Source of the DNA: an uncultured archaeon
GTDB lineage: Archaea; Iainarchaeota; Iainarchaeia; Iainarchaeales; Iainarchaeaceae
Length of the DNA stretch: 32,000 nt
Assembly (NCBI GenBank): GCA_964577555.1
Contig: CAZNZM010000005.1
Location: forward strand, 1-32,000
Direction of reading: 5' to 3'
Under the pieces are notes generated by a model that saw nothing but the letters and a program-made list of their open reading frames with translations, did not search any database and was not told the origin of the DNA. A program made the position numbers and the translations under genes. Below are positions 12,886 to 28,990 of this stretch, piece after piece. How positions within the stretch are numbered: the first letter of the stretch is position 1; every line of letters begins with the position of its first letter.

Positions 12886-13278
12886 CTATTTTTTCATGAG
12901 TTTTCCTATTCCCTGCAAAAGATTGTCAGCCATTGAAGCAAAACTTTCAATTCCAAAAGAGCTTGATATTTTTTTATTTTGGATTTTGGCTTTTTCGCTT
13001 TTCCCTATTTCCTTGCCTATCATTTTAAAGTTTTCTTCAAAAAACTTTTTTCCAGAATTTGATTTGGTTTTAGCTTTACTTAAAAACTCCGCTTCTTTGT
13101 AAACACCTTTTTTAAGCTGGATGAACACCTCTTTAAGAATGGAAATTAATCCAGCAAAAAAAATTCCAAAAACGTCAAATAATGCCAAAAAAATTAAAAA
13201 AAAACCCAAAAGTACTTGTCCAGATTCTATTAACAATATTGAAATAACTAGTAATATTATGCTAAGCAAAATTTGCAT
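12886..13278 (-). CDS. Small membrane protein S5 (130 aa): N-terminal TM hairpin plus Lys-rich soluble tail
   Basis: Its ATG abuts the S4 stop (TGAATG at 13281..13276). The N-terminus MQILLSIILLVISILLIESGQVLLGFFLIFLALF shares the hydrophobic-SGQ-hydrophobic hairpin with S4. Confidence 0.7.
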   Translation of the reverse strand: MQILLSIILLVISILLIESGQVLLGFFLIFLALFDVFGIFFAGLISILKEVFIQLKKGVYKEAEFLSKAKTKSNSGKKFFEENFKMIGKEIGKSEKAKIQNKKISSSFGIESFASMADNLLQGIGKLMKK

Positions 13279-13593
13279 TCAACCAGCCCCATACATTCCG
13301 CCAAACATGTCCCCCATGCCTATTTGTTGTTCAGGCTCTGGTTTTGCCCCCATTAAAATAGCTAGAATAACCAAACCAAATATTGCAGGAATCCAAAGAT
13401 CCGGTTCGCCGTTAATTGCTATAAAATAAATTACTGCAGTGCTTATGAGAAGCAGCAAGGTAGTGGAAAATTCTTTTGAAGTAATAATACTTATAATGAG
13501 TACTGCAAAAACAATCCAGTTTTGCCCGGATTGAACAGCAATGAACATGAACAAAATAGCCAACAAAAAATTAAAAGTATCCAAGATTCTCAC
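13279..13593 (-). CDS. Small polytopic membrane protein S4 (104 aa)
   Basis: The GTG start lies within an AGGTGA context, 17 nt after the S3 stop. It has 3-4 hydrophobic helices, a FMFIAVQSGQNWIVFAVLII hairpin, and a Gly/Met-rich C-terminus (GMGDMFGGMYGAG). Confidence 0.7.
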   Translation of the reverse strand: MRILDTFNFLLAILFMFIAVQSGQNWIVFAVLIISIITSKEFSTTLLLLISTAVIYFIAINGEPDLWIPAIFGLVILAILMGAKPEPEQQIGMGDMFGGMYGAG

Positions 13594-13610
13594 CTTTGAT
13601 GCTCATTGTA

Positions 13611-13871
13611 TTACCTCAATTGATCCCCACCAAAAGGATTGATCTGCGCCAAAAATTCCTTTCCAAGAGTTTGCAGTAAAAAAAGTATTACAAGCAGCCA
13701 CACAAGAAATTCATATTGAAAAAAAGTCAAATATATTACAATAGTAGCAAACATTGCTGAGATTGCCGGCGAGCCAATGTTTTCTTTAGCCCAACCAACT
13801 AGCCATATAAAAATAAAAAAGATTACGACAATTCTTATATTGTCGAACAAACTTGCAAGCAATGTTAGCAT
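13611..13871 (-). CDS. Small 3-TM membrane protein S3 (86 aa), paralogue of S1 and S2
   Basis: It has an ATG start. The motif GWAKENIGSP lies between TM1 and TM2. The segment IVIYLTFFQYEFLVWLLVILFLLQTLG aligns with S2 VLIYFMVFKYFELFLSLYILQTLLGLG. Confidence 0.7.
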   Translation of the reverse strand: MLTLLASLFDNIRIVVIFFIFIWLVGWAKENIGSPAISAMFATIVIYLTFFQYEFLVWLLVILFLLQTLGKEFLAQINPFGGDQLR

Positions 13872-13925
13872 AAAATCACTTCACTGTTTACTATTTATGA
13901 TTGATTACTAATAAATTAATATCCT

Positions 13926-14243
13926 CTACCTTCTCATGGTAGTTCCTATTCCCCAAATAATGGTTGACAAAAATCCAAGTCCAAGCAAGGTTTGAAGTAT
14001 GTAAAGCGAGAGAAAAAGTTCAAAGTATTTGAAAACCATGAAATAAATAAGCACCGCAGAAACAACTATTACTAAAGGCCCAGAACCTAGGAAACCTCTT
14101 ACAGTAGTATATATCATAAAAATCATTATTATTTGCATTAAAATTTTGGCTTCCCAAAAAAGGCTTGTAATTACTACTGGAATCAAAGCCAGAATTATTA
14201 ACCCTAAAATTATCAATAAAAGTATGTTGCCCTTTTGATTCAT
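13926..14243 (-). CDS. Small 4-TM membrane protein S2 (105 aa), paralogue of S1 and S3
   Basis: I use the internal ATG at 14243 (MNQKGNILLL...), which follows the S1 stop by 1 nt (GGAGA TGA T ATG). The longer track ORF (to 14414) overlaps S1 in another frame. The shared motif here is TVRGFLGSGP. Confidence 0.7.
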   Translation of the reverse strand: MNQKGNILLLIILGLIILALIPVVITSLFWEAKILMQIIMIFMIYTTVRGFLGSGPLVIVVSAVLIYFMVFKYFELFLSLYILQTLLGLGFLSTIIWGIGTTMRR

Positions 14244-14244
14244 A

Positions 14245-14652
14245 TCATCTCCTCGTAAACATTCTTTGTGCATGGCTCCGCGCAGCATGTTCAGCCATTC
14301 TTTTTTGTATGTCAACACCGCTCGAAACAGGCGACTCCATGTCTTCTTCCGGTGCTTTTGGGGGCCCTCCGGCGCTAATAAAGAAGAAATCCACGAGTAT
14401 GCCGCTAACCCCAAACATCAAAAGCATGTATAAAATGTAAATTGGCCCAAAAATCGCCCAACCATCCAAAAATATGAAAAATGTCAAAGCCGCAATAAGC
14501 ACCCAAGACATAGTCCCGCTTCCAATGTGGTTTCTTACCCAACTTACCAGCATAAGAAAAGCAAATATTTTGACTATCAAATTAAGGTCGTTAAACAACT
14601 CAAAAACGGAATCAATGAAAAGCATTGTATCAACTAACCCAAACCAATACAT
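14245..14652 (-). CDS. Small 3-TM membrane protein S1 (135 aa) with basic C-terminal tail, paralogue of S2 and S3
   Basis: The ATG at 14652 overlaps the G1 stop (14634) by 19 nt; an alternative ATG lies at 14625. The motif SWVRNHIGSG lies between TM1 and TM2. Confidence 0.7.
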   Translation of the reverse strand: MYWFGLVDTMLFIDSVFELFNDLNLIVKIFAFLMLVSWVRNHIGSGTMSWVLIAALTFFIFLDGWAIFGPIYILYMLLMFGVSGILVDFFFISAGGPPKAPEEDMESPVSSGVDIQKRMAEHAARSHAQRMFTRR

Positions 14653-17600
14653 GTTTCCCCCGCCTTTAATGAATTTGAAACTTCCGAAATATTTAATTTT
14701 GCTCCTTTTGAATCATAAACTGTTTTAGGATTCCAAAAAATTTCAGCCTTCCTGCCGGAATCGGAAATACAAGCATTGCCAGACTCTACCAATTTGAATA
14801 CATCCAAAACAGTTGTTATTGCCCCCGTGCTTCCGCCAGAAGGATCATTATATTTTACCCCGGTTATTCCAGAAAGCCTTGCTTTTTCGCTTATTTCTTC
14901 AGGAGTCATTAAAATCGCTTTTCCTTTTGGATGCTCTAATTTAAGAGAATAAATTTCCAATGGATTAGTAAAGAATATTGTTCTTATATAAGAATCGCCT
15001 TTATAAACGATTGGCCCAAAGTCAACGCCGTAAGCACTCTCCCAATCATTAAGAGGGTCTTTTGTTGTGGCAGCCCTGTCCGAACGCGAATCAAAAGACT
15101 CTGTTATTAATGTTCCAGAAAAGTCAAGGCACGCTCCTACGCCATTCCAAAAAGTCAATGTTTCACCAACATCGACAGGCACTTCATTGTTGGCAACAGT
15201 ATAAAAAACAGACAAAGGCTCTTCAGAAATTGAATTTGCCGAAACCTTTATCATCACCGGCGTGGCTTTGGAAGGCGAAAAAACCAAGTTTGCTTCAGAA
15301 GGCGAAATTTTTTCCAAAATAAACAAATTGCCTCTTGTTGAAGGAGAAGAGTTTAATTTGTAAAAAGATTTTTCAAGTTTTGTGGCGGCAATTGAATTGG
15401 CATTGCTTCCATTGTCATTATAAGTTTTCATTGGTTGGCTGGAATTGTCAAACAATATTTGCCCTTCTTCGTTGAAAAAGCTTACCCCATAACCTTGCCT
15501 GTTGAAAGAATCATTTTCAAGTCCTACAAGGCCATCCAATGGCAAATAATAAAATGCAGAATTTGGTCTTGGTTCATGCAAAAGATAAAACTCTATTTCT
15601 ATTTTCACATTAGGAGAACCATCCGCGTTAAAAAACCTGAAACTCTTGTCAATTCCTGAAATATTTATCAACACGTCATAAATTCCCGGGCTTGGCAATT
15701 CATGTGAATCAAAAAACCTGTTTCTGAAAGAAATATTGTGATTTATAAAAATATTCGCAATTCCATAAGGTTTGCCATCAGGAGAAGTGGCTTCCTTGTA
15801 AAACCACTCCGCAGTATCAAAAAACCTGCCGTTAGAATAATGTTCCGCAAAGTCGTTTATGAAATCCTCGCTAAAAGAATCCCTTATAAGCATTGCATTG
15901 AAATGAATAGTATTCATAAAAGATTCTTTGTTGGGAATCTCCTGTGTCCAAGAAATTGCGTTTTCATTTGCTTCTATTAAATGTTTGATTGCAGGCTCTC
16001 CTTCAATAAATCCTGTCCAATTCTCCAAATAGCAATTTTCTGTTTGTGAATTTCTGTCAACATTAAGGTCTCTCGCCAGTGTTTCAAATTCCTTGTTTAA
16101 AGGATTTGCAGGGCATTTGAGGTTTTGGTTTTGGTTGAAAAAATCTTTTAACGCCTTGAGCCTTTTTGAAATCATAATACTAAATTGTGTTGCGTCACAA
16201 TAAATGCCGTTCGGATTTTGTTCAAGACACGTGTCCTTATCAATATTTGTAAAACTCCAATCAAATCTAACTTTTGGCAAAGAGGCTTTTCCAGTTCTTC
16301 CGAATTTTACCCCGTTTTCGCATGAAAGAGTATCAAACGAAAGCTGTGGAATTGTTTCCTCTTCTTCCATTGTCTTGAACTTCAAATGAATTTTGGATTC
16401 CACATTGACTTTTTCTCTGTCGGGCACCTTAAAAGGCCCGAAATTGCTGTTTCCCCTTTCAATTTTTGTAGGCAAAGCATGTAAATGTTTGGTTGCATTG
16501 AAAGTGAAAGTAGCATAAGAAGGTTTTTGATTGGCAACGCCGTTGTTAATGAAAACCAAACCGACTTTTTGCTTATTATATTGTCCTATTATTTTTGCAG
16601 AATCCATGTTGTAATACGCAACCAAATCTTTGTTGTCAGAAACTATTGGCCCTGCATCAGAAACTAGGTTTATAACATAATCAGGCAAACTTGAAGTATG
16701 CCTTTGGGTGCAAGGATCGTTTCCAAAAATTTTTCCATATATCCCTCCAATAAAAAAACCACCAAGAGAATACATTGCCATGATGTTAGTTGGCGTAAAA
16801 AAACTCTTGGCTGTCGCGCTTGCAACCACGTTTCCTAAAGAATTGTTTGCAGACTGCACAATAGCATTCGTTGAAGCAAAACTTAATTTAAGAACCCCTG
16901 TTTTTGCAACAGATTCGCCAAATTGATTGGCAACAAAAGACTGCAAGGAAGAAGAACTTTCACCAACCAAAGAAACAGCTTCAGCTATCGCTGCTTTGCA
17001 TTGACAAACTTCCGGATCGGCTTGGCACATACTAATAGCAATAGTTGCGGCGCTTCCCAAAGAAGTTGCACCAGCATTCAAATAAACCGATGCTTGTTGA
17101 ATATAAGCCAATACTTCACTGTTAAGGTATTCTTTTTGAGCAAGTAATTCCGAAGCATCCAATTGTGTAAATCTGCCGTTTATGAATTGCCCACCATTCA
17201 TTGCCACATCCTGCAATTTTGAGTCATTCTCAATAATTTTACTCATAATATTTTTCGCATTTTCACACGCAGTTTTAGCAGATTGAACAGAAGCAATAGC
17301 CGAAGTTATATTAGCATTTGCAGGAGTTATACTGCATGGACCATAAGCACTTTGTGTGCTGGAAAGTGCAGAATCAATTTTTGAACAAACAGCATCAATA
17401 TTGTTATTGGATAAATTATCAGCAGCAACCGATGCTTGTTGTGCTGATTTTGTTGCATCCATTGATTGTCCAATTCCTGAAGCAACCCCTTTTGCAGCAG
17501 CATTTGAAGCCATTAATGCAGGCCTTATTCCCATTAACGCGCCATATATTGCTCCAACACCAGCACCAGTCCAATCCCACCATCCTTTTTCAGTTGCGTC

Positions 17601-20600
17601 GCCCCAATCGCAAATGCTTGCATCCACAGTAATATTTTCGCTCAAAAACTTGTTAGTTAATTCAGTAGAATCCTTTGAACCGTTTCCAATAAGAGTGAAA
17701 GAATATTTGTTAAGCTCGAAAGCATCATTCATAGTGGGTTTTGCAATAACATCAAAAGTCAAAAGCTCTCTATAATTAGTATTTTTAGTTTTAATAAAAA
17801 CCTTGACCCCATAAATGCCAGGTATTTCCTGCCGTGATACCCTTACCGTTTTGGAACTATTCACAGGCTTCAAAGTGAATTTTTCCGGTTCAACAAGTAT
17901 TCCGCCTTCAGATCCGCCAGAACAACCAGCATCATCTTTGCACATCCAAAAATCAATCTCCATATTTCCACAAGCCGAAGAATCAATCGTAATACCCGCT
18001 TCGTTTGAATTTTCAGGAATAACCAAAGGAGTTTCTGCTTGTGGCGTGAATTTGATGCAATCCCTCAAGTTAAGCGTGTCGATTTCAACTTTTATTTGAT
18101 TGCTTGAACCAACACTTTCCTCGCCATAATCAGTAAATTGCGAAGCATCAATTGTTATGCTGAATTCCGCCTTTTTTCCCAAAGAATTGCCTTTTGGCGT
18201 AAAAATTATTTCAGCAATATATTCCCTTCCACCAGGGACCCTTTCAAAAAGCGTGCTAAAAATTCCATCCGCCAAAATATCTTTTCCTATTTGCCCTGTT
18301 ATTGAATCAATTGCCTGAACTTCTACAAAGCCAAACTTGTTGCTTTTCCAATCAACCTTTGCCTTTAAATTTTTCAAATCGATAGGCTTGTTTTTTTTGT
18401 CAATACAATTGTTTTTAATATAGAATTCGGTTTTGGCTACGCCTGAAATTGTTGCATCTTTCCATTCCTTTATTGAAACCTCAATACAATTTTGATTTGC
18501 CGGAGGCTCAGCCAAAGAAATTGCAGTAGAAAAAGGAATTTCAAAAGGCCAAGTATTTTTATTTTTGTCTGTAAATTCAAGATAGAGTCTTCCTGAAATG
18601 TTTTTCTTTTCTTTTATATATTTTCCGTCTTCGCTTATTGCTGCTATGAAATTCATTTCTTTTGACTCGTTGAATCCTACTTTTATACCGGAATTCATAG
18701 ATGCATAATTTGTCATTTTTTGTTCATCCAGCAACCCTAAAAATTTTCCATAAAATCCTGCTTTTGAAAGTTCAAGTTCCAAAGGAGTCAAATTGGCAAT
18801 TGAAACAGATTTTTTTTCCTCTCTTTTTGATGAAATATTCAAATTATAATTCAATTTTTCAGGAGAAAATTTCAATATTTCTTTAGTAACTTTTAATTGA
18901 TATGATTTTCCTGAATAGCCTGGTTTTTCAACAACTACTTTGAATCTTGTGTTTGGCTCCAAAGCAGGGATTTTTATAAGTGCTTTTCCTTCCAAATCGG
19001 TAGTGCCGATAATCGTTGTTTTTTTTCTGTCAGGATGCACCAATTCAACTCTTACATTTGCGCCATCAACTCCAAAATAATCTTCTTCTTTATACTCTTT
19101 GGCTTCAACTTTTAGTTCAAATTCCGTAAAAGCAGGAATTATTTCAGGAACAATCGCAATATTCATGTCATTGCTTGCCACTATTTTAAAATCAATTTTT
19201 TTTTCAAACACTATATTTTTTTCAGAATGAATAATTATTGATAATCCAGATTCTGATAAATTAACCGGTTTTATTTTCAACCTTCCTGTTATTGATTTGT
19301 TTTTATTTAATTTTCCTAAAATTATTCCTTCAATTTTGAAAGTTTCCCTGTTTGAACCGAATTTTTCCGAATCCGCACTGAAAATGCTGTAATCAAGTAT
19401 TTTTATATTTTCTTGGTTGGAATTTGAAATAATTAGTTTTGCATTGTCATATGTTGCTTCTTTGTTGTTCAAAATGGAAAATTCAATTTCATATTCCCCG
19501 AAATTTCTTAATGAATAAGGCTTTTCAAGGTATAATTCTTCCTTTAAATCAAGCACTTTTTCATTGAAACAAAAAAATTCGCCGCAGTCTGTTGAAGAAT
19601 TATAAACATATGTTTTTGCATATAACCATTTTTTTGTTGCAGAATTTTCCGCAAAACCAAGTTCAGAGTCTTGCGGATCCCTGTATATTTCCCCATTGCT
19701 TTTTACTGCAAACGCCCTGTAATTAAAAAATAACTTGCTTTGTGCGTTTGCAAAATTTTTCAATTTGAATTTAACTCCGAAATTAATTATTTTTCCAGCG
19801 TTGTTTGATTTTTCCCAAGCGATTTGCACCCATTTTGCATTGCCGTTGGTTAGGTTGCTTAAATCTTCTTCCAAATTTCTTGGCGGATTATAAGTTGAAC
19901 CCATCAAATAAGTTGCTTTTGGCGCATCAACTTCATATATATACATTGTATCTTTTTCAACATTATTCTCATTTCCGACGTTAATAAAAGCCCCTGCCTG
20001 TTCATATTCAAAATCTTTCGGAATAACCAACAAAAACTTTGCTTCATATGATTTGCCAGGCTCCAATACCTCGGCTTTTTTTCCATCAGAACTTATTTCT
20101 ACCAAACTTATTTTGATGTTTCCTGAAATAGATTCTTTTTCAAGTTTTGCCATGATTTTTGCCGCTTTTTCAGGCAATATTATTGAGGACGTGGAGTGGT
20201 ATTCTGCATACCCTTCGGCTGTTACAACCACTGAAACCTTTTCTCCTGCCCTGATTTTTGCGCTTCCTTTTCCGCTGCTGTCCAAAACTATTTTTCCTAT
20301 TCTTTTTTCATAATCAAAAATTTCTGCGTTGGCAAAAGGAACCGCTTTTCCATCCTCGTCCAAAGTTTCTATTTCAATTGTGCCATATCCTATTTTCAAT
20401 TGCAGAATAATTTCTTTGGTGGCGCCTTCGTTTATTTCAAATGCTTCAGAAAGCCCGTTTGCAGGATATTTTTGTGCAATAACTCTGTATTTTCCGTTTT
20501 TAATACCGGTAAATTTTGCAATTCCATTGTTATTGGTTGTTTTTGGCTGGTATTCATTCAAAGCAAAATTCGTGTCAGGTTCTATGATTATTACCTTAGC

Positions 20601-21812
20601 ATTTCCGACAGGCTTATTTTCTTCATCAATTATTTTGACATCAAGTGAATTGCAAGTGTTTGGAGTGCATGGCAAAAGTTCTACATCTATTACGCTTTTT
20701 TGGATGTTTGACGAATCAACTTCAATAATGCCAGATGGCAAATACCCATTTGACGAGACAACTATTTTTGTTTTTCCTTGCCTCGTTATTTGTATCTCAA
20801 TTTCTCCTTTGCCTTCAATTGAATACTTGCTTGAATCCGGCAATTCTATATTTGCTTTTGCCTGCAATTTTGCCTTGCTTCTTTTGTCAACTATGTTGAG
20901 TTTTACAGAACCAAATTTTTGTTCTTCCAAAGTTGCTTCAAAATCAGTTGTTTCTTTTGAAATTATCTTTGCGTTTCCGCTGAAAGTGCTTAAGTTTTTA
21001 TTATTCGGAACTATGACTATTTTGTAATCACCAGGTTCAAGCGAAAATTCAGCTTTGCCAAAACCTGATATTTTTTTGTCAACAAGCGACCCAAATTCAT
21101 CATTTACAAATACTTCCGCGCCGTCAACATTATTGCCAAATTTGTCTTTTACTGAAACTTTGAGAAACCCTTCTTCAATTATGCGCGGCGCTAATTTTAT
21201 TATATTGCTTTCTTCAAGGTTGTATGATTTAACTTCAAAACCGCTTCCAATGACTTTTGCGGACATCGCACCGCAACCTGGCGGAACCTCCACATCAAGT
21301 TTGCCGCTGCTTACCTGCTTTATTGGGTTTGTTATTTTGATTGCTGTTGAACAACTTAATTCTATTGTAAGCATTTTTCCTTCTATTTTTGCCCCGTCAG
21401 GTCCTACAAAAATCAAGCTTTTGACAATTTGTTTTTCTCCATCCGAAGGTTCAAGTGTTGCTTTGATTATCTCTTTTTCATTTTCAATTTTTATGGTTTT
21501 TGAAAATTCTTTGAAGCCTGTTGCGGAAATTTTTATAGTTATTTCTTTTCCTTTAGGAATTTTTTCAAAAGTTGCATTTCCGCTTCTGTCAGTCATTTTG
21601 GCTGGCAAATTTCCTGCACCAATTAGTTGGACTTTTGCCTTCCAAACAGGGCTTTCCCTGCTGGTTACGTTTATATTGACATCAGAGTATTTTTCACCTG
21701 AAAAAAAAACAAAATACCCTATGCCTAATACTGATGCCAAGGCTATGGCTAATAATATTACTGCCACAAACTTATTCGCTTCTATTAATTCCCTGATTGA
21801 ATCAAATTCCAT
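14634..21812 (-). CDS. Giant membrane-anchored surface protein G1 (2392 aa)
   Basis: This is an uninterrupted 7.2-kb ORF with an N-terminal anchor (FVAVILLAIALASVLGIGYFVFF). It carries several carboxypeptidase-regulatory-like beta-sandwich repeats, for example LDVKIIDEENKPVGNAKVIIIEPD...NNNGIAKFTGIKNGKYRVIA. Two glycine-zipper hydrophobic segments (aa ~1415-1437 and ~1677-1697) flank an Ala/Ser/Gln/Asn-rich insert. The C-terminal module starts at DPC (C1701). The protein is collinear with G2 and G3. Confidence 0.9.
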   Translation of the reverse strand: MEFDSIRELIEANKFVAVILLAIALASVLGIGYFVFFSGEKYSDVNINVTSRESPVWKAKVQLIGAGNLPAKMTDRSGNATFEKIPKGKEITIKISATGFKEFSKTIKIENEKEIIKATLEPSDGEKQIVKSLIFVGPDGAKIEGKMLTIELSCSTAIKITNPIKQVSSGKLDVEVPPGCGAMSAKVIGSGFEVKSYNLEESNIIKLAPRIIEEGFLKVSVKDKFGNNVDGAEVFVNDEFGSLVDKKISGFGKAEFSLEPGDYKIVIVPNNKNLSTFSGNAKIISKETTDFEATLEEQKFGSVKLNIVDKRSKAKLQAKANIELPDSSKYSIEGKGEIEIQITRQGKTKIVVSSNGYLPSGIIEVDSSNIQKSVIDVELLPCTPNTCNSLDVKIIDEENKPVGNAKVIIIEPDTNFALNEYQPKTTNNNGIAKFTGIKNGKYRVIAQKYPANGLSEAFEINEGATKEIILQLKIGYGTIEIETLDEDGKAVPFANAEIFDYEKRIGKIVLDSSGKGSAKIRAGEKVSVVVTAEGYAEYHSTSSIILPEKAAKIMAKLEKESISGNIKISLVEISSDGKKAEVLEPGKSYEAKFLLVIPKDFEYEQAGAFINVGNENNVEKDTMYIYEVDAPKATYLMGSTYNPPRNLEEDLSNLTNGNAKWVQIAWEKSNNAGKIINFGVKFKLKNFANAQSKLFFNYRAFAVKSNGEIYRDPQDSELGFAENSATKKWLYAKTYVYNSSTDCGEFFCFNEKVLDLKEELYLEKPYSLRNFGEYEIEFSILNNKEATYDNAKLIISNSNQENIKILDYSIFSADSEKFGSNRETFKIEGIILGKLNKNKSITGRLKIKPVNLSESGLSIIIHSEKNIVFEKKIDFKIVASNDMNIAIVPEIIPAFTEFELKVEAKEYKEEDYFGVDGANVRVELVHPDRKKTTIIGTTDLEGKALIKIPALEPNTRFKVVVEKPGYSGKSYQLKVTKEILKFSPEKLNYNLNISSKREEKKSVSIANLTPLELELSKAGFYGKFLGLLDEQKMTNYASMNSGIKVGFNESKEMNFIAAISEDGKYIKEKKNISGRLYLEFTDKNKNTWPFEIPFSTAISLAEPPANQNCIEVSIKEWKDATISGVAKTEFYIKNNCIDKKNKPIDLKNLKAKVDWKSNKFGFVEVQAIDSITGQIGKDILADGIFSTLFERVPGGREYIAEIIFTPKGNSLGKKAEFSITIDASQFTDYGEESVGSSNQIKVEIDTLNLRDCIKFTPQAETPLVIPENSNEAGITIDSSACGNMEIDFWMCKDDAGCSGGSEGGILVEPEKFTLKPVNSSKTVRVSRQEIPGIYGVKVFIKTKNTNYRELLTFDVIAKPTMNDAFELNKYSFTLIGNGSKDSTELTNKFLSENITVDASICDWGDATEKGWWDWTGAGVGAIYGALMGIRPALMASNAAAKGVASGIGQSMDATKSAQQASVAADNLSNNNIDAVCSKIDSALSSTQSAYGPCSITPANANITSAIASVQSAKTACENAKNIMSKIIENDSKLQDVAMNGGQFINGRFTQLDASELLAQKEYLNSEVLAYIQQASVYLNAGATSLGSAATIAISMCQADPEVCQCKAAIAEAVSLVGESSSSLQSFVANQFGESVAKTGVLKLSFASTNAIVQSANNSLGNVVASATAKSFFTPTNIMAMYSLGGFFIGGIYGKIFGNDPCTQRHTSSLPDYVINLVSDAGPIVSDNKDLVAYYNMDSAKIIGQYNKQKVGLVFINNGVANQKPSYATFTFNATKHLHALPTKIERGNSNFGPFKVPDREKVNVESKIHLKFKTMEEEETIPQLSFDTLSCENGVKFGRTGKASLPKVRFDWSFTNIDKDTCLEQNPNGIYCDATQFSIMISKRLKALKDFFNQNQNLKCPANPLNKEFETLARDLNVDRNSQTENCYLENWTGFIEGEPAIKHLIEANENAISWTQEIPNKESFMNTIHFNAMLIRDSFSEDFINDFAEHYSNGRFFDTAEWFYKEATSPDGKPYGIANIFINHNISFRNRFFDSHELPSPGIYDVLINISGIDKSFRFFNADGSPNVKIEIEFYLLHEPRPNSAFYYLPLDGLVGLENDSFNRQGYGVSFFNEEGQILFDNSSQPMKTYNDNGSNANSIAATKLEKSFYKLNSSPSTRGNLFILEKISPSEANLVFSPSKATPVMIKVSANSISEEPLSVFYTVANNEVPVDVGETLTFWNGVGACLDFSGTLITESFDSRSDRAATTKDPLNDWESAYGVDFGPIVYKGDSYIRTIFFTNPLEIYSLKLEHPKGKAILMTPEEISEKARLSGITGVKYNDPSGGSTGAITTVLDVFKLVESGNACISDSGRKAEIFWNPKTVYDSKGAKLNISEVSNSLKAGETCIGLG

Positions 21813-21961: not shown

Positions 21962-24900
21962 CTATTGTCCAATGCATGTCCTTCCGGCTTCTAAAGAATT
22001 TGCAAAGCTTGAAATATTTTTTTGCCTGCCGTTATATGTATAAACGTATTGTGGGTTCCACCAGAATTTTACTGAATTTCCAGTACTTGTAACGCATAAC
22101 ATGTTGTTTTCAACCATTTTGAAGGCATCCGAAATGCTTGCAATCCTGCCTGACAAACCCATTGAGTAGTCATTATACTTCATACCAATTATCCCATTTA
22201 GCGTGACTTGTTTTCCGCTTTCATCAGGAGTCATGAATTCAACTCTTGATTCAGGTTTTGCCCTTATTTGCGTTTGCTTTTTCGGGTCTGAAAATATTAT
22301 TGTCCTTAAATAAACGTCTCCAGAGTATTGTATCGAAGGCCAATCAATTGCATAACTTGATTTGTAATCGTTTATTTTGTCAGATTCCTTGCCTTGTCTG
22401 TCCGGTTTTTGATAAAATGCTTCTGTTACTGGCGCCCCTGTAAAGTCAAGGCAGTTTCCTGCTCCGTCCCAATATGTAAGGCTTGTTCCAGTGCTGGTTG
22501 TAGCAGAATTTTCAATAATGCTGTAATAAGCATTCAAAGGTTGTGAACTTTTTTCAGAACTTATTTTCATTATAAGCGGAGTTGCTTGCGAAGGCTGGAA
22601 AACTATTTTCGAACCTTTTCCTTCCTTGCTTGCTACTTCAAGCACCATGCCTCTTGTTTGCGGAGCCGTGTTCAAAGTATAAAGGTCATTATTGCTTGCA
22701 ACCAAAATTTTTGATATTGCGTTGCTGCCTGAATCTTCAAAAGACATGACCGCATTTTTTCCATTATTAATTGCCACTATTGAAGTCCCGCCTTGGTTAT
22801 AAAATGTTGCACCATAATTTTTTCTGTTTATTTTGTTGCCTTCCACGCCCACCAAACCGTCAAATGGAATATAATAAAAAGGAGAATTTGGATTTGGATC
22901 TGCTATTCTTGTCATAATAATTGCAACATATCCCGTAATGCTTCCATTTTCCCTTATAAGCTTCCAATCGCCGCCAGTAAAATAAACAGCCAATTCAACC
23001 CTATAAAGCCCCGGATTGTTTATTTCAGAAGTATCCGCAAATTTCCTTCGCACAACAAATTTTCCTTCATCCATTAATTTGTTGAAGCCTATTTTGTTTC
23101 CTTGGCTGTCACTTATCAAGCTTGTAAAGTATGAATCCGCATCAAAGAATTGGCCACTACTATAAGTTTTGCTGAAATCTAAAAAGAATTCTTTTGAATA
23201 ATTGTCTTTTATCAAATAAGCGTCAAATATTAAAAGTTTTTGCAAGGCTTCCATATTCGGAATTGCTTTGGTCCATTTCACGTTTTTGCCTTCAATATAT
23301 CTTATGAGTTGCGGAGTTCCTGCTATTGTTTCTGTGGTCCTGAATTCGCAAAACTTGGCTGCGTCGCCTTTTGTAGGGTCCCCGAAAAATATGGCATTTA
23401 CAACGCTTCCTGATTGCTGTTTTTCTCCGGCAGTTGAACTTGAAATTGACGCGTTGAACAAATACGCTCCATCTTCAAGGTTTGCGAAATCGCATGAAGC
23501 ATTTCTTTTTTCGTCTTTTGAAATTCCAAGCAATTGCACTACGCAAGGCTCTAATTGTGTTGTTCCTTTGACGCCTGAAACCGAAATGGTGGCGTCTTGA
23601 TAGTCATCGGTTTTGTTTTCAACAGAAACATTGACTTTTATTTGGTTGTTTTCTTCTTTAAGCGTTATTTCTTTTACCCCTAAAAACCCATTTGGCACAT
23701 TTCTTGACGAGCTTCCTTTGTATTGTTCTGCAATGCTGTTTGCTATTTCGCTTTTTGCATCTTTGGCAAACGAACATTCAAAATTGTAATTGTTTTCCTG
23801 CAAAAATTCGTTCAACATATTAAGTTTTTTGTTTAATTCAATGGTGAATTGCACTGCATCACAATAAACATAATCGGGGTTGTCTGCGTCGCATTGATTG
23901 TAGGAAATTCCCCCTTCGTTTTCTTTCCAACTCCAATTAAATTTTACACGCGGCAAAGCGCCTTTTCCTGTTCTGCCTATTTCAAGTCCGTTTTGGCATG
24001 CAAAGCTGTCAAAAGTGGTTTTTGGAATGTAAGTTTTTTCTTCGGAAGTATTGAATTTGACGTGGAATTTTTGCGAATATACTTTGTCTTCCATATTGTT
24101 TAATGTATTGCATGGAACCATGTTTATCCAAAAATTCCCGAAATCTCCGTTAGTGCTTCCGGCTCTTCCGCATTGTACTAATGCATTTTGGTGGGTTGGA
24201 TCGCCGTGGATATGTTCTTTTGCCCGCATTGTGGCTATTGCATAAATAGGTTTTTCTTCCTCTGCAGACAAATTTGTAAAAACAACGCCTACTACTTGTT
24301 TTCCATTCGGATTTGTTTTGTTGAATTTTTGTATTGCATCAGCAATATCCAACATCCATTCCCCTTTAAATCTCGAATCGCTTACAATTACATCAATAGC
24401 GTCAGGCCCAACATACCTTGGCTTGGTTTTGTCATCGGTTCCTACAAGATTTATAACGTAATCGTTGAGTGTGTGGGTTTCGAATTGTTCGCAAGGATCT
24501 TCTCCTAAAATAGTCATGAAAATTATTATGACAAATACTATTATTCCAACGACTGCGCCTATTCCCGTTGATGCTCCGATTGCAAGAACAGTTATCAATC
24601 CTGCTGCTACGCCTGCAGCAGCGCCTCCTAATGCTATTCCTGCCTTTTCAGCATCATTAAGCCCGGAAGCGGCTTCTTCCCAAGCGCACTTGTTTGCTTT
24701 TACGTTTACTTTTTCTTGCAACATATAATTTGTTAAAGTTGCTTCGTCTTTCTTTCCTTTACCAATCATTGTGAATGCATATCTGTCCATTGAAAAGTAT
24801 TCTCCTTCTTCAGGCTCCACAATAACATCGTACTCGGCTATTTGTCTGAATGTTCCGCCAGCAGGCTTTGCTTCTATTGTCAAACCATAAAAACCCGGTA

Positions 24901-27900
24901 TTTCAAGCCTTGATACTTTTACATTTCTTGATTCCGCTTTAAGTCTTGTGAAATGATCTGGTTCAACAAGTATTCCGCCTTCGTCTGTTCCGCCCCTGCA
25001 TTGATAATTTTCTCTTCCCCCGCAAAACCTAAAATCCACTTCAACAGGACCGCAATCAACAGTATCAATTGTAAATTCCGCTTCTCTTTGGTTTGGTTTT
25101 AACTTTATGCCTTCGTCAGCCGCTGGAGTGAATTTTATGCATTGGTCAAGATTGGCTATTGCTATTGAACCTGAAATGTCATTGGTTGCTCCAACAAGTT
25201 GTTTTCCAGAATTTGTTTTGAGGCTTGCACCTATTTTTATTTTGAATTCGGCTTTTTTTCCTGTTGAATTCGGTTTTGGCACGAAAGTCATTCTTGCAGG
25301 ATAAACCTTGCCATATTCCAATTTTTCAAGCAATACACTTGAAACGCTTTGTTGAAGTATTTCCCTGCCTATTTGTCCGCTTGAAACATCTGTTACTGAA
25401 AATTCTATTTGCCCCAATTGACCCGTCTGTCCCTGCCAATTCACGGTTGCCTGCAAATTTGCCAAATCAATAGGCGTTTCTTCTTTTGATATGCAATTAT
25501 TGACTATTTCAAATTCAAGCGAAGCTTGATTGTCAACCGTTGAATCCTGCCACTCAGCAGTTGAAAGCGAAATACATGGGGCATTGGCAGGCATTTCAGC
25601 AAGGTTTATCAAAGCCTCGTATGGCAAGGAAGCAATCCAAATAGCGTTTCTGTCATTTGGAGTGCCAAACTCAAGCATGAAATTTCCTGAAATTTTTTTT
25701 TGCTGTTCAAGCAAATCAGCTTCAGAACCAACTGCTGATAACAAATTGATTTGTTTTGAATCAAGGCTTTGTATTTGGTTTCCAACCCATTGCTGGACAA
25801 AAGTATTCATTCTTGCTTCATCCAGCAACCCTTTGGAGTTTATTGATTCGCGAATGCTTTTGATTGTAATTGGAATAGCTAAATTGTTTATTATTCTGAC
25901 TTCCGAATTAGTCCCGCTTTTTACTTGCATATTCAAGGAAACCGAGACTTTTGATGGCTCAAATGAAACCACTTCGCTTTTGAATTGTTTTTCAACAACG
26001 TTGGAAGCCAAACCTGATTTTTCAGCCCAAACAAACAATTTTGTTCCAGGCGAAGAAGCCGGCAAAAGCATTTTTGCGTTGCCGTTCCAATCGGTCACTG
26101 CACTGAATCTGGTTTCGCTTCTATCCGGCAAAACCCTTAAAGCGTAAATAACTGCTCTTTCAACGCCAAAGCCAGTGTCTTTTCCGGTGCTATAAGCAGC
26201 GTTTACAGAGATTTCTGTTTGAATATACGCCGGCAACGTTTGAGGCATTACTGACAAGCTTATGTTACCTTGCGCAAAAGGCAAAAAAGCGACAGGGCTT
26301 TTGAAAACCTCGGAATTGCCTGAGATTAAAGACAAAATCATGTTTTGCGGATTTGTGCTTTTTGGCTCTATTTCAATAATACCTCTCACGCTTTTGTTTT
26401 TTAAAAAATTTCCTGCTGCGATTTGTTCAATTTCATAACCTTGGTTTGTTGATGAAAACACCCTTCCATCGGCATTTGTAATTGAATAAGATTTAATCAA
26501 AAAGCCATTTTCATGTTCAATCTTTGCCGAAAAAGTTGCGTTGTTATATTCGTAATCGGAATTGTTTGTAAGAGTGAATTCCAAAACATATGGGCTGAAT
26601 GTTTTCACTTTATATGGTTGTTCAATATACAGATTGGTTTCCTTGTCCAACAGCCTTGTTCTTAAACAAAAATTCAAATTGCATAATTCTTCTATTCCTT
26701 CCAAAAACCTCAATTCATGGCTGTTTGCATAAAATCCTTTTTTTGATTGTGTGTCCGCCTCGTTGCCAAGAGTGTTGTCTGCAGGAACTCTAATATATCC
26801 TGAATCTGAAAAGGCATAAACTCTGTAATATAAAGGGAGTTCTGTTGAAGGCGCTGTGCCTGGCTTTATTCTTACATCAGCTTCAATTTCGTATTTTCCT
26901 GGTTCTGGCCTGTTCCATTGCACCGACACCCACTTTGCATTGCCTTGCGTTGTTTTTTCTTCATCATCTCCCAATGGCGGGTTGTATGTTTCTCCTTTGT
27001 TAATAAGCCGTGCAGGAACCCTTGTTGATTCTATCCATAAAACATCGCTAGCCACGTTTGCTTTGTCTCCCGCTCTGAAGAAAAAACCAGCTTCGGAATA
27101 ATTTGAGTTGTTCGGAATTTCCATTAAAAACTTTGCAGTATAAAGCGAGCCTGCAGCAAGCGAAACAGCTTTTGTGTCCTTGTCTCTAAACATTCCTAAA
27201 AACATTATTTTTGGCTGGTTATCCGAACTTCCCTGTGTTAAAACCGCGTTGAATTGGATTGACTTGTTCGGCAACACTTGTTTTGGCGAGAAAAAATAAG
27301 ATGCATAACCTTCTTTTCTTACAACAGCATACACGCTTTTGTCTGCTTTCACTTTCAAAGTGCCGGCGCCATCAGGCCCAAGCGTTATTACTCCTATTGT
27401 TTTTCCATAATCCGCAATTAATTGTGCTTGAGCGCCAATCACAGGCAAGCCGTCTTCATTTACAGCCTTTATGTTTATTGTGCCTTGTCCTATTGTAATA
27501 CGCATTTGAACGTTGTTGTCTGTTGCAGGATTGACTTCAAACAATTCAGATTTTCCTTCGGCTGGGAATTTCTGAGCCAAAGCATAAAATTTACCCCTGC
27601 CTACACCCCTTATTGAAGCAACTCCGTTGAAATCAGTGATTCCGAAAGGATAAGCTGTCGCAACCAAACCATCTTCGCCAAGCAGAATTACTTTTGCGTT
27701 TTCAACAGGCAAATTATCTTCATCAATGACCTTGACATTCAAATAACCGCATTTTGTAGGAGTGCACTTTTCAAGTTCAATGTTTATCCTTTGTTCGCTT
27801 CCCCTCGGAAAAGAAAACGTTGAAATTTCCCTTTTTGGCGAAGGAATAAAATCATTCTTGTAGGCACTGATATAGTATGTTCCGCTGTCTTTCAAAAAGA

Positions 27901-28990
27901 ACACCGCAGAACCGTTATAATCCTCGGTTTTTTTGCTTCCAACAATTCCGCTTGCATTGAAAAGAAAAACATCAGCCCCACTGATTTTTGCTCCGCCTTT
28001 TTCCGAAACATTGACAACAAGTTTTAGCTTGACATCTTTTGAAACCAATATCTCTTTTTTAGAAATAATTCCTTCAACGACTTCAACAGGAATGCTTTGA
28101 GAAGCGTATTGCCCCGCGGGATCGCTTATCGCCGCAACGTAATTGCCCACAGGAATTCTTGTAAATGACACCTTGCCAAAGGAAGTTGCACCCTCTATTT
28201 CCGTAGGCGAATTTGAAGAATCAAAAAGCTTTACAAAAATGTCATTCAAATACCTTCCAGTATCAGCATCTTTTATATCCAAATCCAAATTACTTTTTGG
28301 CAAGTCCAAGCCTTGAAAATTAATTTGCCCGACTTTGGTTTGCACCATTGCAAAAGCCGATTTAAAACCAACCGCAGTCGCACTTGCCTTTATTGTCCCG
28401 CAATTTTCCGGAGCCATTACCTTAAGCTCTCCTTCAGTTGTAACATACTCGTCTTTGTCAAAATTTTTTGCGGATTGAACAGTGCATGAAAGCTTGACCG
28501 AAATTTCTTTGCCAACAAGTTTTTTAGAGTCAGGGCCCACAAAAATCAAAGTGACTTCCCTTGCAGCTTGCGTCTTCGCAACCAAATCCATTTTCAATTC
28601 CATTTTAGCTCCTACGGAAACAATCAAATTTTTGTTTGAAACAGGCTTGTATCCTTCCTTGTTTGCCGAAACCTTGAATTCCTTGCCAATGGGCAAATCA
28701 AACAAAGCTTCGCCGTTTGAATTTGTTTTCACTTCAAATTGGTTATCCGAGTCCTCGACCAGAACCTTTGCTTCGCTTATCGGATTGCCTTTGTCATCTT
28801 TTACAAGAACGCTTACCTGTGCGTTTTCAGGCTTTGCGTTCATAAAAAAAGCAAACGCCAAAATAATGAAAATTACGAGTATTAAAATAATTGAATAAGG
28901 AAAAAAAGGTATTTTGCCTTTAAGAATCTCATACCTTCCGACAATTTCTTCTCTTATATTTGCCAGCTCCATTGCAAAAAATATGTTCAT
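21962..28990 (-). CDS. Giant membrane-anchored surface protein G2 (2342 aa), paralogue of G1
   Basis: This is an uninterrupted 7.0-kb ORF, collinear with G1 over its whole length. It has one continuous hydrophobic Gly/Ala-rich stretch of about 52 aa (aa ~1444-1495) before DPC (C1500). The second ATG at 28972 (MELANIREEI) aligns better with the G1 N-terminus MEFDSIRELIE. Confidence 0.9.
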   Translation of the reverse strand: MNIFFAMELANIREEIVGRYEILKGKIPFFPYSIILILVIFIILAFAFFMNAKPENAQVSVLVKDDKGNPISEAKVLVEDSDNQFEVKTNSNGEALFDLPIGKEFKVSANKEGYKPVSNKNLIVSVGAKMELKMDLVAKTQAAREVTLIFVGPDSKKLVGKEISVKLSCTVQSAKNFDKDEYVTTEGELKVMAPENCGTIKASATAVGFKSAFAMVQTKVGQINFQGLDLPKSNLDLDIKDADTGRYLNDIFVKLFDSSNSPTEIEGATSFGKVSFTRIPVGNYVAAISDPAGQYASQSIPVEVVEGIISKKEILVSKDVKLKLVVNVSEKGGAKISGADVFLFNASGIVGSKKTEDYNGSAVFFLKDSGTYYISAYKNDFIPSPKREISTFSFPRGSEQRINIELEKCTPTKCGYLNVKVIDEDNLPVENAKVILLGEDGLVATAYPFGITDFNGVASIRGVGRGKFYALAQKFPAEGKSELFEVNPATDNNVQMRITIGQGTINIKAVNEDGLPVIGAQAQLIADYGKTIGVITLGPDGAGTLKVKADKSVYAVVRKEGYASYFFSPKQVLPNKSIQFNAVLTQGSSDNQPKIMFLGMFRDKDTKAVSLAAGSLYTAKFLMEIPNNSNYSEAGFFFRAGDKANVASDVLWIESTRVPARLINKGETYNPPLGDDEEKTTQGNAKWVSVQWNRPEPGKYEIEADVRIKPGTAPSTELPLYYRVYAFSDSGYIRVPADNTLGNEADTQSKKGFYANSHELRFLEGIEELCNLNFCLRTRLLDKETNLYIEQPYKVKTFSPYVLEFTLTNNSDYEYNNATFSAKIEHENGFLIKSYSITNADGRVFSSTNQGYEIEQIAAGNFLKNKSVRGIIEIEPKSTNPQNMILSLISGNSEVFKSPVAFLPFAQGNISLSVMPQTLPAYIQTEISVNAAYSTGKDTGFGVERAVIYALRVLPDRSETRFSAVTDWNGNAKMLLPASSPGTKLFVWAEKSGLASNVVEKQFKSEVVSFEPSKVSVSLNMQVKSGTNSEVRIINNLAIPITIKSIRESINSKGLLDEARMNTFVQQWVGNQIQSLDSKQINLLSAVGSEADLLEQQKKISGNFMLEFGTPNDRNAIWIASLPYEALINLAEMPANAPCISLSTAEWQDSTVDNQASLEFEIVNNCISKEETPIDLANLQATVNWQGQTGQLGQIEFSVTDVSSGQIGREILQQSVSSVLLEKLEYGKVYPARMTFVPKPNSTGKKAEFKIKIGASLKTNSGKQLVGATNDISGSIAIANLDQCIKFTPAADEGIKLKPNQREAEFTIDTVDCGPVEVDFRFCGGRENYQCRGGTDEGGILVEPDHFTRLKAESRNVKVSRLEIPGFYGLTIEAKPAGGTFRQIAEYDVIVEPEEGEYFSMDRYAFTMIGKGKKDEATLTNYMLQEKVNVKANKCAWEEAASGLNDAEKAGIALGGAAAGVAAGLITVLAIGASTGIGAVVGIIVFVIIIFMTILGEDPCEQFETHTLNDYVINLVGTDDKTKPRYVGPDAIDVIVSDSRFKGEWMLDIADAIQKFNKTNPNGKQVVGVVFTNLSAEEEKPIYAIATMRAKEHIHGDPTHQNALVQCGRAGSTNGDFGNFWINMVPCNTLNNMEDKVYSQKFHVKFNTSEEKTYIPKTTFDSFACQNGLEIGRTGKGALPRVKFNWSWKENEGGISYNQCDADNPDYVYCDAVQFTIELNKKLNMLNEFLQENNYNFECSFAKDAKSEIANSIAEQYKGSSSRNVPNGFLGVKEITLKEENNQIKVNVSVENKTDDYQDATISVSGVKGTTQLEPCVVQLLGISKDEKRNASCDFANLEDGAYLFNASISSSTAGEKQQSGSVVNAIFFGDPTKGDAAKFCEFRTTETIAGTPQLIRYIEGKNVKWTKAIPNMEALQKLLIFDAYLIKDNYSKEFFLDFSKTYSSGQFFDADSYFTSLISDSQGNKIGFNKLMDEGKFVVRRKFADTSEINNPGLYRVELAVYFTGGDWKLIRENGSITGYVAIIMTRIADPNPNSPFYYIPFDGLVGVEGNKINRKNYGATFYNQGGTSIVAINNGKNAVMSFEDSGSNAISKILVASNNDLYTLNTAPQTRGMVLEVASKEGKGSKIVFQPSQATPLIMKISSEKSSQPLNAYYSIIENSATTSTGTSLTYWDGAGNCLDFTGAPVTEAFYQKPDRQGKESDKINDYKSSYAIDWPSIQYSGDVYLRTIIFSDPKKQTQIRAKPESRVEFMTPDESGKQVTLNGIIGMKYNDYSMGLSGRIASISDAFKMVENNMLCVTSTGNSVKFWWNPQYVYTYNGRQKNISSFANSLEAGRTCIGQ

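Follow-up and report, generated by a model that had tools for sequence, protein, structure and literature searches.

Transmembrane glycine zippers of the form (G/A/S)xxxGxxxG are said to have been described by Kim et al. in PNAS in 2005, in VacA, MscL/MscS, KcsA and amyloid peptides. The nearest functional precedents for a membrane-inserting role of the element reported here are TelE (PMC10434224) and CdzC/CdzD (PMC5380434), which are reported to carry glycine zippers on helical carriers and to damage target membranes. Here, we describe a glycine-zipper element in the middle of giant surface proteins encoded in the window, by which we mean the whole 32,000-nucleotide stretch that was analysed, the first 32 kb of contig C5 (CAZNZM010000005.1) in a 979-kb, 15-contig, 95.5% complete assembly (GCA_964577555.1) of an uncultured archaeon of the Iainarchaeota. 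The window (guanine plus cytosine ~35%) carries three consecutive minus-strand giant genes, G1, G2 and G3, and a fourth, G4, lies beyond it. Comparison with relatives shows that the hinge element of these giants is real and occurs across the phylum, in a protein family that is uncharacterised. In outline, a variable, cysteine-bracketed loop at the hinge would contact the membrane while both large domains are extracellular; in G2 it would serve as an anchor, and in G1 it holds a helical rod for which we lean towards an outside position. We would put as much weight on this explanation as a whole as on everything that competes with it. A literature search found no published description of these giant proteins. 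The genes of the array are:

14634..21812, minus strand: G1, giant surface protein of 2,392 amino acids (aa), from its open reading frame (ORF) and translation
21962..28990, minus strand: G2, paralogue with a contiguous hairpin, 2,342 aa, from its ORF and translation
29222 to 36361 on contig C5, minus strand: G3, coding region running past the window end
36920-44419 on contig C5, outside the window: G4, fourth giant

G1 is laid out as an N-terminal signal anchor, a chain of immunoglobulin-like (Ig-like) and CarboxypepD_reg domains, the hinge element and an orphan C-terminal module. It is 33% identical to G2 across the first 1,420 aa and 36% identical across a 457-aa C-terminal stretch, and the C-terminal ~800 residues of G3 are common with G1 and G2. 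A Pfam scan of whole G1, G2 and G3 (E ≤ 0.01) returned CarboxypepD_reg and Ig-like families only, all of them N-terminal. The conserved parts of the giants have neither an assigned function nor an assigned fold. The strings that the original prediction, made from the letters of the window, had quoted from G1, G2 and G3 are all present on the minus strand.

Protein searches gave ~45 full-length relatives of the giants, and a scan of GTDB genomes gave 229, of which the best 80 matches, from 66 distinct loci, were kept; the comparison set comprised 82 G1/G2-clade giants from 66 Iainarchaeota loci. Members of this clade are ~2,200-2,700 aa long and share an N-terminal anchor, a CarboxypepD_reg/Ig-like chain, a C-x-W...D-P-C hinge, DYVINL and YCDATQF motifs and the C-terminal module (alignment A1, 40 proteins), and the gene order G4-G3-G2(-G1) recurs across loci. 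The loop lies between the C-x-W cysteine and the D-P-C cysteine, at the hinge where the N-terminal Ig-like chain meets the orphan C-terminal module, and was cut from 80 giants with hidden Markov models (HMMs) of the conserved flanking blocks; parsing by the DYVINL/YCDA motifs failed on G3/G4-type paralogues and was dropped in favour of these HMMs. It occurs in three states: a contiguous hydrophobic hairpin of 53-160 residues in 50 proteins, G2 among them; two arms with an insert of 270-435 residues in ~20 proteins, including G1; and, in 10 proteins, 0-51 non-hydrophobic residues that are often rich in Trp and Asp (e.g., CFWGKDGKLDWWGDIWDDWDC). Orthologues that lack the hydrophobic core altogether, which the original prediction had named as evidence that would count against it, do exist, in ~12% of relatives and through at least 5 independent losses. 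The record titles of the 229 relatives read Iainarchaeum, Diapherotrites or unclassified archaeon except for two contigs titled as bacteria (NZCP01000006.1, locus L023, 'Candidatus Woesebacteria bacterium', and JAFCCG010000009.1, locus L052, 'Chloroflexi bacterium'), which carry a typical giant array and are probably mis-binned Iainarchaeota contigs. In some metagenome-assembled genomes, a giant gene appears as two overlapping ORFs in different frames (L006:20648-28143 and L017:4271-11258), probably through assembly or frameshift errors, with genuine split genes as the alternative.

On a FastTree phylogeny of the C-terminal module (82 rows, G3 as outgroup, basal branches unresolved), the insert-bearing proteins form three clades of 12, 4 and 3, short loops need at least 5-7 independent origins, and loop states switched at least 10 times. 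With hhalign, the insert cores of four insert-bearing groups matched one another at a probability of 18% or less, and, as judged from these sequences, the inserts may go back to a single ancient one or may have arisen independently several times. The hinge loop is an evolutionary hot spot, in which one cysteine-bracketed site holds a hairpin, a short Trp/Asp-rich loop, or arms and a fast-evolving rod. A clean deletion of the whole element is found in one of the 10 short-loop proteins and also in P0017; in this case (L013:9727-16530 and P0017), a G2 orthologue lacks both the element and the two bracket cysteines (…EVRKLKTGPLYDYVINL…), and the sister of this deletion sublineage (L005:12829-19740) has kept a 34-residue non-hydrophobic loop. 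At the L013 locus the G1-type neighbour retains arms and insert, and at L005 no G1/G2-clade neighbour was recovered. Six of the ten short-loop loci yielded a second G1/G2-clade giant next to the short-loop one, and in all six that neighbour had kept a hairpin or an insert, which fits with the giants acting together. The four tandem giants may form one surface complex, for which both the conserved G4-G3-G2(-G1) order and these retained neighbouring elements can be listed.

The contiguous state is best seen in G2:

24485..24688, minus strand: G2 hinge element, from C1435 (C-A-W, codon 24686-24688) to E-D-P-C1500

After C1435, this element consists of a Gly/Ala zipper helix (H1), an A-S-T-G turn and a strongly hydrophobic helix (H2) that leads into E-D-P-C1500. 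The core is a charge-free Gly/Ala/Ile/Val stretch of 47 aa (aa 1450-1496, 24503-24643) followed by EDPCEQ, with a maximum Kyte-Doolittle 19-residue mean of 3.15; that it is continuous and stands before DPCEQ had been foreseen, and only the extent first given for it, ~24506-24660, has to be corrected. We scored 19-residue segments with a crude Hessa sum that ignores position, in which lower values are more membrane-like and +0.5 or below was taken as membrane-grade. G2 H1 scores +0.8 and H2 -4.6, values reached by none of the 378 soluble-like ORFs of the genome (0/378). Among the 50 hairpins, H2 is at or below 0 in 33 and at or below +1 in 41, and a window in the H1 half reaches +1 or below in only 2. 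Hairpin cores hold a median of 1 charged residue per ~63 residues.

The G2 hairpin most probably serves as a membrane anchor that contains a turn: as a charge-free hairpin it would dip through the producer's own membrane and pin the hinge there, with the Gly/Ala zipper of H1 packed inward and the greasy H2 facing lipid, a packing that could resemble that of the ATP-synthase c subunit. AlphaFold2 modelled the G2 hinge from 47 aligned sequences (predicted local distance difference test, pLDDT, 80; predicted template modelling score, pTM, 0.74) with the two flanking beta-sandwiches packed together and helices at aa 1446-1460 (pLDDT 41-64) and aa 1478-1494 (pLDDT 68-85). Foldseek matched the flanking domains of this model to generic Ig-like folds in the PDB, and no PDB match reached E ≤ 0.001. 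The low AlphaFold2 confidence for G2 H1 and for the G1 arms, together with the ten relatives without the element, might suggest instead that the element lies outside lipid, either buried in hetero-oligomer interfaces of the giants or as an unspecific flexible greasy linker. We consider this very improbable, as the H2 of G2-type proteins match the N-terminal anchors in hydrophobicity and exceed every window in the 378 soluble-like ORFs, the charge-free runs of the loop elements extend over 45-60 residues against a soluble-like maximum of 38, and the arms, with their invariant zipper glycines, are better conserved than the rest of the hinge. The hairpin centres are prone to turn: G2 has A-S-T-G, and 18 of 49 contiguous hairpins, for example L010:4160-5098, L012:4632-5597, L025:16265-17164, P0014, P0018 and P0022, have a C-P-x-C-type motif (CPPC, CVPC, CLPC, CPVC or CGPPC) at the turn or the start of H2, which G2 lacks; this motif may act as a metal or redox site or as a 'proline knot'.

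The topology of the giants as a whole is informed by the cysteines that bracket the loop and by the G3/G4-type paralogues, for which the relevant features are:

17610..17612, minus strand: first bracket cysteine of G1, C1401, in a C-D-W motif (73/78 G1/G2-clade relatives)
16704..16721, minus strand: N-D-P-C-T-Q motif of G1, with the second bracket cysteine, C1701, at 16710-16712
31658..31999, minus strand: G3 version of the element, without bracket cysteines, continuing past the window

Of the 78 G1/G2-clade relatives, 72 have both bracket cysteines, 5 have neither and 1 has the first alone; at least 90% of the alignment A1 sequences retain C1435, the G2 counterpart of C1401. As the two cysteines are kept or lost together, they would be expected to pair with each other, and this co-variation suggests that a disulfide closes the loop. 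In G3, the outgroup paralogue, the element consists of an arm (AISAGLVMLTNWGAG), a K/T/N/Q-rich linker, an amphipathic Gly-rich helix and a zipper arm (SPLAAGLLGGFVGTLISYSG). The amphipathic version spans 31658-31813, and the positions originally assigned to it, 31664-31798, do encode an amphipathic sequence (AAQGAAGSLAEGLLKSGAGLVRGVFGTSPLAAGLLGGFVGTLISY); the arms are split, and there is no membrane-grade helix there. Across 32 full-length G3/G4-type giants from 30 loci, the N-terminal anchor is the sole membrane-grade segment in 30, the two exceptions being one protein with such a segment at residue 110 and one with none, and giants of both types carry the same C-terminal module as G1 and G2. 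Because the G3/G4-type giants have no mid-protein segment, short-loop variants exist and the bracket cysteines co-vary, the N-terminal chain and the C-terminal module are placed on the same side, the outside of the cell, and the element can only cross the membrane an even number of times. The packing of the flanking beta-domains in the G2 model (pTM 0.74) is also listed for a same-side topology. An arrangement with the N- and C-terminal halves on opposite sides, joined through a single span, is excluded by the G3/G4-type giants and the short-loop variants. The proposal of a transmembrane hairpin that leaves both large domains outside is therefore well founded for G2 and the family, on the strength of the G3/G4-type giants, the short loops and the cysteines, and is less certain for G1, where it would put the insert in the cytoplasm and where the arms score only +6.2 and +4.9.

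An Asp-Pro bond stands directly before the second bracket cysteine in most relatives examined (N-D-P-C at 16704-16721 in G1, E-D-P-C at 24485-24499 in G2). Bonds of this kind break easily by chemical means, and some proteins use them for self-cleavage. It is pure speculation that, if this bond were cut, the bracket disulfide, if formed, would still retain the C-terminal module.

In G1, the hinge element is divided as follows, with the rod helices taken from the AlphaFold2 model:

17508..17582, minus strand: arm H1, aa 1411-1435, WWDWTGAGVGAIYGALMGIRPALMA
16785..17507, minus strand: insert, aa 1436-1676, 241 aa, a family-specific helical rod
16722..16784, minus strand: arm H2, aa 1677-1697, IMAMYSLGGFFIGGIYGKIFG, with zipper LGGFFIGGIYGKIFG, then NDPCTQ
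17334-17525, minus strand: rod helix a1, aa 1430-1493
17196-17318, minus strand: rod helix a2, aa 1499-1539
17019-17153, minus strand: rod helix a3, aa 1554-1598
16812-17015, minus strand: rod helix a4, aa 1600-1667
16998..17387, minus strand: six rod cysteines, C1476, C1493, C1516, C1596, C1603 and C1605 (12/12 in the G1 clade)

H1 starts with a Trp-rich cap, WWDW, and continues with the glycine zipper GAGVGAIYGALMG and R-P. The reading of G1 as two halves around an Ala/Ser/Gln/Asn-rich, Cys-containing insert of ~240 aa was correct, the 241-aa insert being composed of 18% Ala, 15% Ser, 8% Asn, 7% Val and 7% Gln, with 6 Cys. In the 12-member G1 clade, the arms are far better conserved than the insert (57% identity for H1 and 53% for H2 versus 25%); glycines G1418, G1420, G1424 and G1428 of H1 are found in 11-12 of the 12 sequences and G1685, G1689 and G1690 of H2 in 12/12. 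The (G/A/S)xxxGxxxG pattern is present with conserved glycines in both arms (G1420-G1424-G1428 in H1, G1685-G1689 in H2). Measured against per-sequence shuffles, GxxxGxxxG occurs 2 times in G1 H1 against 0.12 expected (p ~0.01) and 2 times in H2 against 0.17 expected (p ~0.02), and family-wide the observed and expected counts, which are not independent given that the sequences are related, are 21/1.2 for insert-class H1, 26/7.0 for insert-class H2 and 41/13.9 for hairpins. The glycine-zipper character noted originally thus exceeds chance both in the G1 arms and across the family. None of the Pfam glycine-zipper families (Gly-zipper_Omp, Gly-zipper_YMGG and Rick_17kDa_Anti) matched G1, G2 or G3 at E ≤ 0.01 or four inserts at E ≤ 10.

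AlphaFold2, run on G1 aa 1291-1833 with 45 aligned sequences (mean pLDDT 86), builds the insert from four helices of 64, 41, 45 and 68 residues (pLDDT 96-98), with a short beta-hairpin joining a2 and a3. Because a1 and a4 each exceed a2 and a3 in length by ~23 residues, the rod would be a four-helix bundle towards its far end and a two-helix stalk in the arm-side third; the model thus gives a rod of ~9 nm that is four-stranded over its distal two-thirds and has its stalk beside the arms. The 23-residue stalk matches the arms in length, so the arms could fold back onto it. The arms themselves are poorly modelled, with H1 mostly coil (pLDDT 38-48) and H2 a helix (pLDDT ~50). The amphipathic or heptad character whose absence had been said to speak against the idea is present in the insert, as a1 and a2 show a hydrophobic periodicity of 3.5-3.6 residues (z ~3). 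C1476 lies 20 residues before the a1-a2 turn and C1516 20 residues after it, and this symmetry means that they should face each other on antiparallel helices; C1493, C1596, C1603 and C1605 are grouped at two distal turns. Judged by their positions along the modelled helices, the rod cysteines would be placed for inter-helix links.

Most orthologues have an aromatic a2-a3 loop (YSFYFGG, EAYFS; the G1 equivalent is at ~17154-17195), and in the G1-type proteins P0045, P0046 and P0047 it is enlarged to a hydrophobic stretch of ~20 residues, e.g., YVVPISIGVAGAAVIIPKLIASY, which looks like an extra hydrophobic helix within the insert. A second insert clade carries Cys-rich knots such as CCxxCxxxxCC. 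No Pfam family was found in four inserts at E ≤ 10, and a phmmer search with G1 aa 1405-1705 against 1.84 billion representative proteins gave only 5 matches, all to giants of the family or their fragments, with no donor or stand-alone relative.

On which side of the membrane this rod lies is the point at which the evidence divides. We judge an extracellular rod to be an evenly balanced proposition, an intracellular one possible and any other reading unlikely. The two G1 arms are kept and strongly conserved but appear too polar to span the membrane alone; if the rod is outside, they would lie in the interface or be packed on the hairpin or anchors of neighbouring giants. The arm scores of +6.2 (H1) and +4.9 (H2) fall at the extreme end of the soluble-like range, with ~17% and ~6% of soluble-like ORFs, respectively, containing a window as hydrophobic. 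In the 21 insert-class proteins the scores range from +2.8 to +23 for H1 and from +0.9 to +7.5 for H2, and the arms are weakened relative to contiguous hairpins in every insert-bearing protein of all three insert clades. This speaks for the outside, since a long cytoplasmic loop should demand stronger, self-sufficient helices that insert singly. In composition, charged residues make up 12% of the rod versus 28% of the cytoplasmic-type ORFs of the genome, a classifier trained on the genome found only 0.8% of cytoplasmic-type ORFs to be as secreted-like, and the cysteine content is 2.4-2.5% versus 1.1%. The folds closest to the rod by Foldseek are mostly extracellular rods (the trypanosome haptoglobin-haemoglobin receptor HpHbR, ClyA, the TTYH ectodomain and the McpS sensor), and the coil that AlphaFold2 assigns to H1 was also counted for an outside position. 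So were the disulfide-like placement of the isolated C1476/C1516 pair, symmetric about the a1-a2 turn, and the split arms of the outgroup paralogue G3 with their lack of a membrane-grade helix. No thermophile-type protein disulfide oxidoreductase (PDO) was found above the family cut-off in the genome, which weakens the idea of cytoplasmic disulfides without proving extracellular oxidation.

Several observations weigh against an outside rod. The insert lies where the hairpin has its turn, a place on the cytoplasmic side if the G2 hairpin spans the membrane. In keeping with the positive-inside rule, the bracket-side flanks are acidic (D+E 4.2 and 1.7, K+R 1.1 and 0.1) and the insert-side flanks mildly basic (K+R 1.6 and 1.1, D+E 1.1 and 0.6). 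N-glycosylation sequons have an observed/expected ratio of 0.78 in the insert versus 1.25 and 1.01 in the ectodomains, a difference too weak to assign a side, and the known membrane helix 2 of Escherichia coli AtpE has a crude Hessa sum of +3.3. A search of the genome found no VKOR-type oxidase. Apart from the last, the same observations favour the possibility that the G1 arms are true transmembrane helices and that the rod is a cytoplasmic domain grown in the ancestral hairpin turn: its position is homologous to the turn of the G2-type hairpin, its flanks are net positive on the insert side and strongly acidic on the bracket side, its sequons are slightly depleted, and AtpE shows that marginal Gly-rich membrane helices exist. 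The WWDW cap would then sit on the outer side of H1, followed by the conserved K/R-P; a1 and a4 continue straight from the arms in the AlphaFold2 model; and four of the six cysteines lie at the distal tip in a metal-site-like grouping, to which the CCxxCxxxxCC knots of the second clade may be compared. Such a rod would reach ~9 nm into the cell like an inverted chemoreceptor and might bind metal through its cysteines or dock cytoplasmic partners, joining the outer giants to the cell interior. We regard both this placement and this layout as possible though doubtful, as the arms are weaker than the hairpins in just those three clades in which a long loop would need them to insert singly, a rod with 12% charged residues would be very unusual among the cytoplasmic helical bundles of this genome, H1 is modelled as coil, and it is hard to see what the isolated C1476/C1516 pair would do in a reducing cytoplasm with no PDO above the cut-off.

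A third way of reading G1 takes the rod and its zipper arms as an outward device that inserts into the membrane of another cell, for host attachment or exchange, in the manner of alpha-pore-formers, viral fusion peptides or contact-dependent glycine-zipper toxins. It develops the original analogy with fusion peptides and alpha-pore-formers, and an analogy is what that comparison has turned out to be. The arms are Gly/Ala-rich and charge-free, adjoin long helices and show higher conservation than the rod; charge-free turns would permit insertion from outside; the a2-a3 loop is aromatic and, in P0045, P0046 and P0047, expanded to the hydrophobic stretch of ~20 residues; and TelE (PMC10434224) and CdzC/CdzD (PMC5380434) provide glycine-zipper precedents. 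Structural searches bear on this directly. Against the PDB, Foldseek matched the G1 model only to generic elongated helical proteins: the trypanosome haptoglobin-haemoglobin receptors (E = 2e-3), de novo maquettes, ClyA, BAR domains, TTYH, the McpS sensor domain and AhlC. The match to ClyA has E = 7.5e-3, template modelling (TM) scores of 0.23/0.36 and a root-mean-square deviation (rmsd) of 11.9 Å, and de novo maquettes and BAR domains score equally. Membership of the G1 rod in the ClyA/HlyE family was rejected, given the lack of a Pfam match, phmmer matches confined to the family of giants, and a rod, head and beta-tongue that do not superpose well. Over PDB and BFVD together, the only match at E ≤ 0.001 was an uncharacterised phage protein with a TM score of 0.18. 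The BFVD matches were to phage tape-measure or tail proteins and uncharacterised proteins, with no fusion glycoprotein, and likeness to class I viral fusion proteins was rejected in view of the lack of a structural match there; a gp41 mimetic appeared in the PDB search at E = 0.11 only.

The weak matches to ClyA and AhlC can be counted for an outward device, but no fold match is significant (rmsd 12 Å for ClyA), no viral fusion protein is among the BFVD matches, and no toxin or fusion family was matched by sequence. The element is also internal to a protein anchored in the producer's own membrane, some paralogues drop it without replacement, and Iainarchaeota are not known to have hosts. We therefore consider this reading improbable. 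In its boldest form, which we think equally improbable, the G1 rod and arms would form a spring-loaded device that is exported and inserts into, or fuses with, the membrane of a partner cell, as an archaeal equivalent of alpha-pore-formers or of fusion machinery, with the G2 hairpin holding the complex in the producer membrane.

Near the giant genes lie genes for a family B DNA polymerase and an M24 peptidase. Between the polymerase gene and the giant-gene cluster, a 502-aa ORF (10416-11924, minus strand) gave no Pfam match at E ≤ 0.001. Directly after G1, five small, highly hydrophobic ORFs of 86-162 aa occupy 12886-14652 on the minus strand and are candidate membrane partners of the giants; the one at 13279-13593 (minus strand) has a C-terminal Gly/Met-rich tail, GMGDMFGGMYGAG, similar to the zipper arms.

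If a membrane-contacting hinge is accepted as the preferred explanation, the loop would be the one membrane contact of the giants besides the N-terminal anchor, in an array of four tandem surface proteins on which ~3% of a ~1-Mb Iainarchaeota genome is spent. A rod inside, if true, would mean a surface complex wired to the cytoplasm, and a rod outside, if true, an outward-facing helical device beside a membrane-active glycine zipper. On either side, it offers a testable handle on how ultra-small archaea build their cell surface.

Set beside known systems, the element resembles several and coincides with none. With the fusion peptides of influenza HA2 and HIV gp41 it shares Gly/Ala-rich GxxxG hydrophobic segments beside long helices, a resemblance of composition only, whereas the G1 element is not known to form a trimer or to have an N-terminus generated by cleavage. 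ClyA/HlyE and AhlC/Hbl/Nhe are likewise approximately four-helix rods of ~9-10 nm with a hydrophobic insertion element and an Ala/Ser/Thr/Gln/Asn-rich composition (Foldseek E = 7.5e-3 to 0.13); unlike ClyA/HlyE, however, the hydrophobic parts of G1 flank the rod, its head bears no beta-tongue, and the rod is an internal insert of an anchored giant. In the sensor or signalling domains of McpS (2YFA) and in the TTYH ectodomain, to both of which the rod has weak Foldseek matches, the first and last helices of the bundle continue into two membrane-proximal hydrophobic helices as they do here, and the TTYH bundle is extracellular and stabilised by disulfides; there is no homology, their termini are cytoplasmic whereas those of the G1 element lead to large extracellular domains, and HAMP or signalling motifs are lacking. 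The hairpin anchors of oleosin, caveolin and reticulon are also charge-free and hydrophobic over 45-70 residues, with a proline-containing turn (compare C-P-x-C in 18/49 hairpins) and flanks on the same side, but they enter eukaryotic membranes or lipid droplets from the cytosolic side, whereas the flanks in the giants are extracellular. Like the transmembrane glycine zippers, the arms carry register-perfect GxxxGxxxG(xxxG) in charge-free helices, enriched over shuffles and with invariant glycines; unlike them, they belong as a pair to a loop in the middle of archaeal surface proteins of 2,400 aa, and those of G1 may not span the membrane. The c subunit of F/V/A-type ATP synthases likewise folds into a hairpin of two helices whose ends both face outward; its first helix is rich in Gly and its second is greasier, an asymmetry also found in G2 and most of the 50 hairpins. 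The two have no sequence relation, and the giants lack the carboxylate ion-binding site; their turn is uncharged or C-P-x-C where that of the c subunit is a polar R-Q-P, and their hairpin is set, bracketed by cysteines, between two huge ectodomains.

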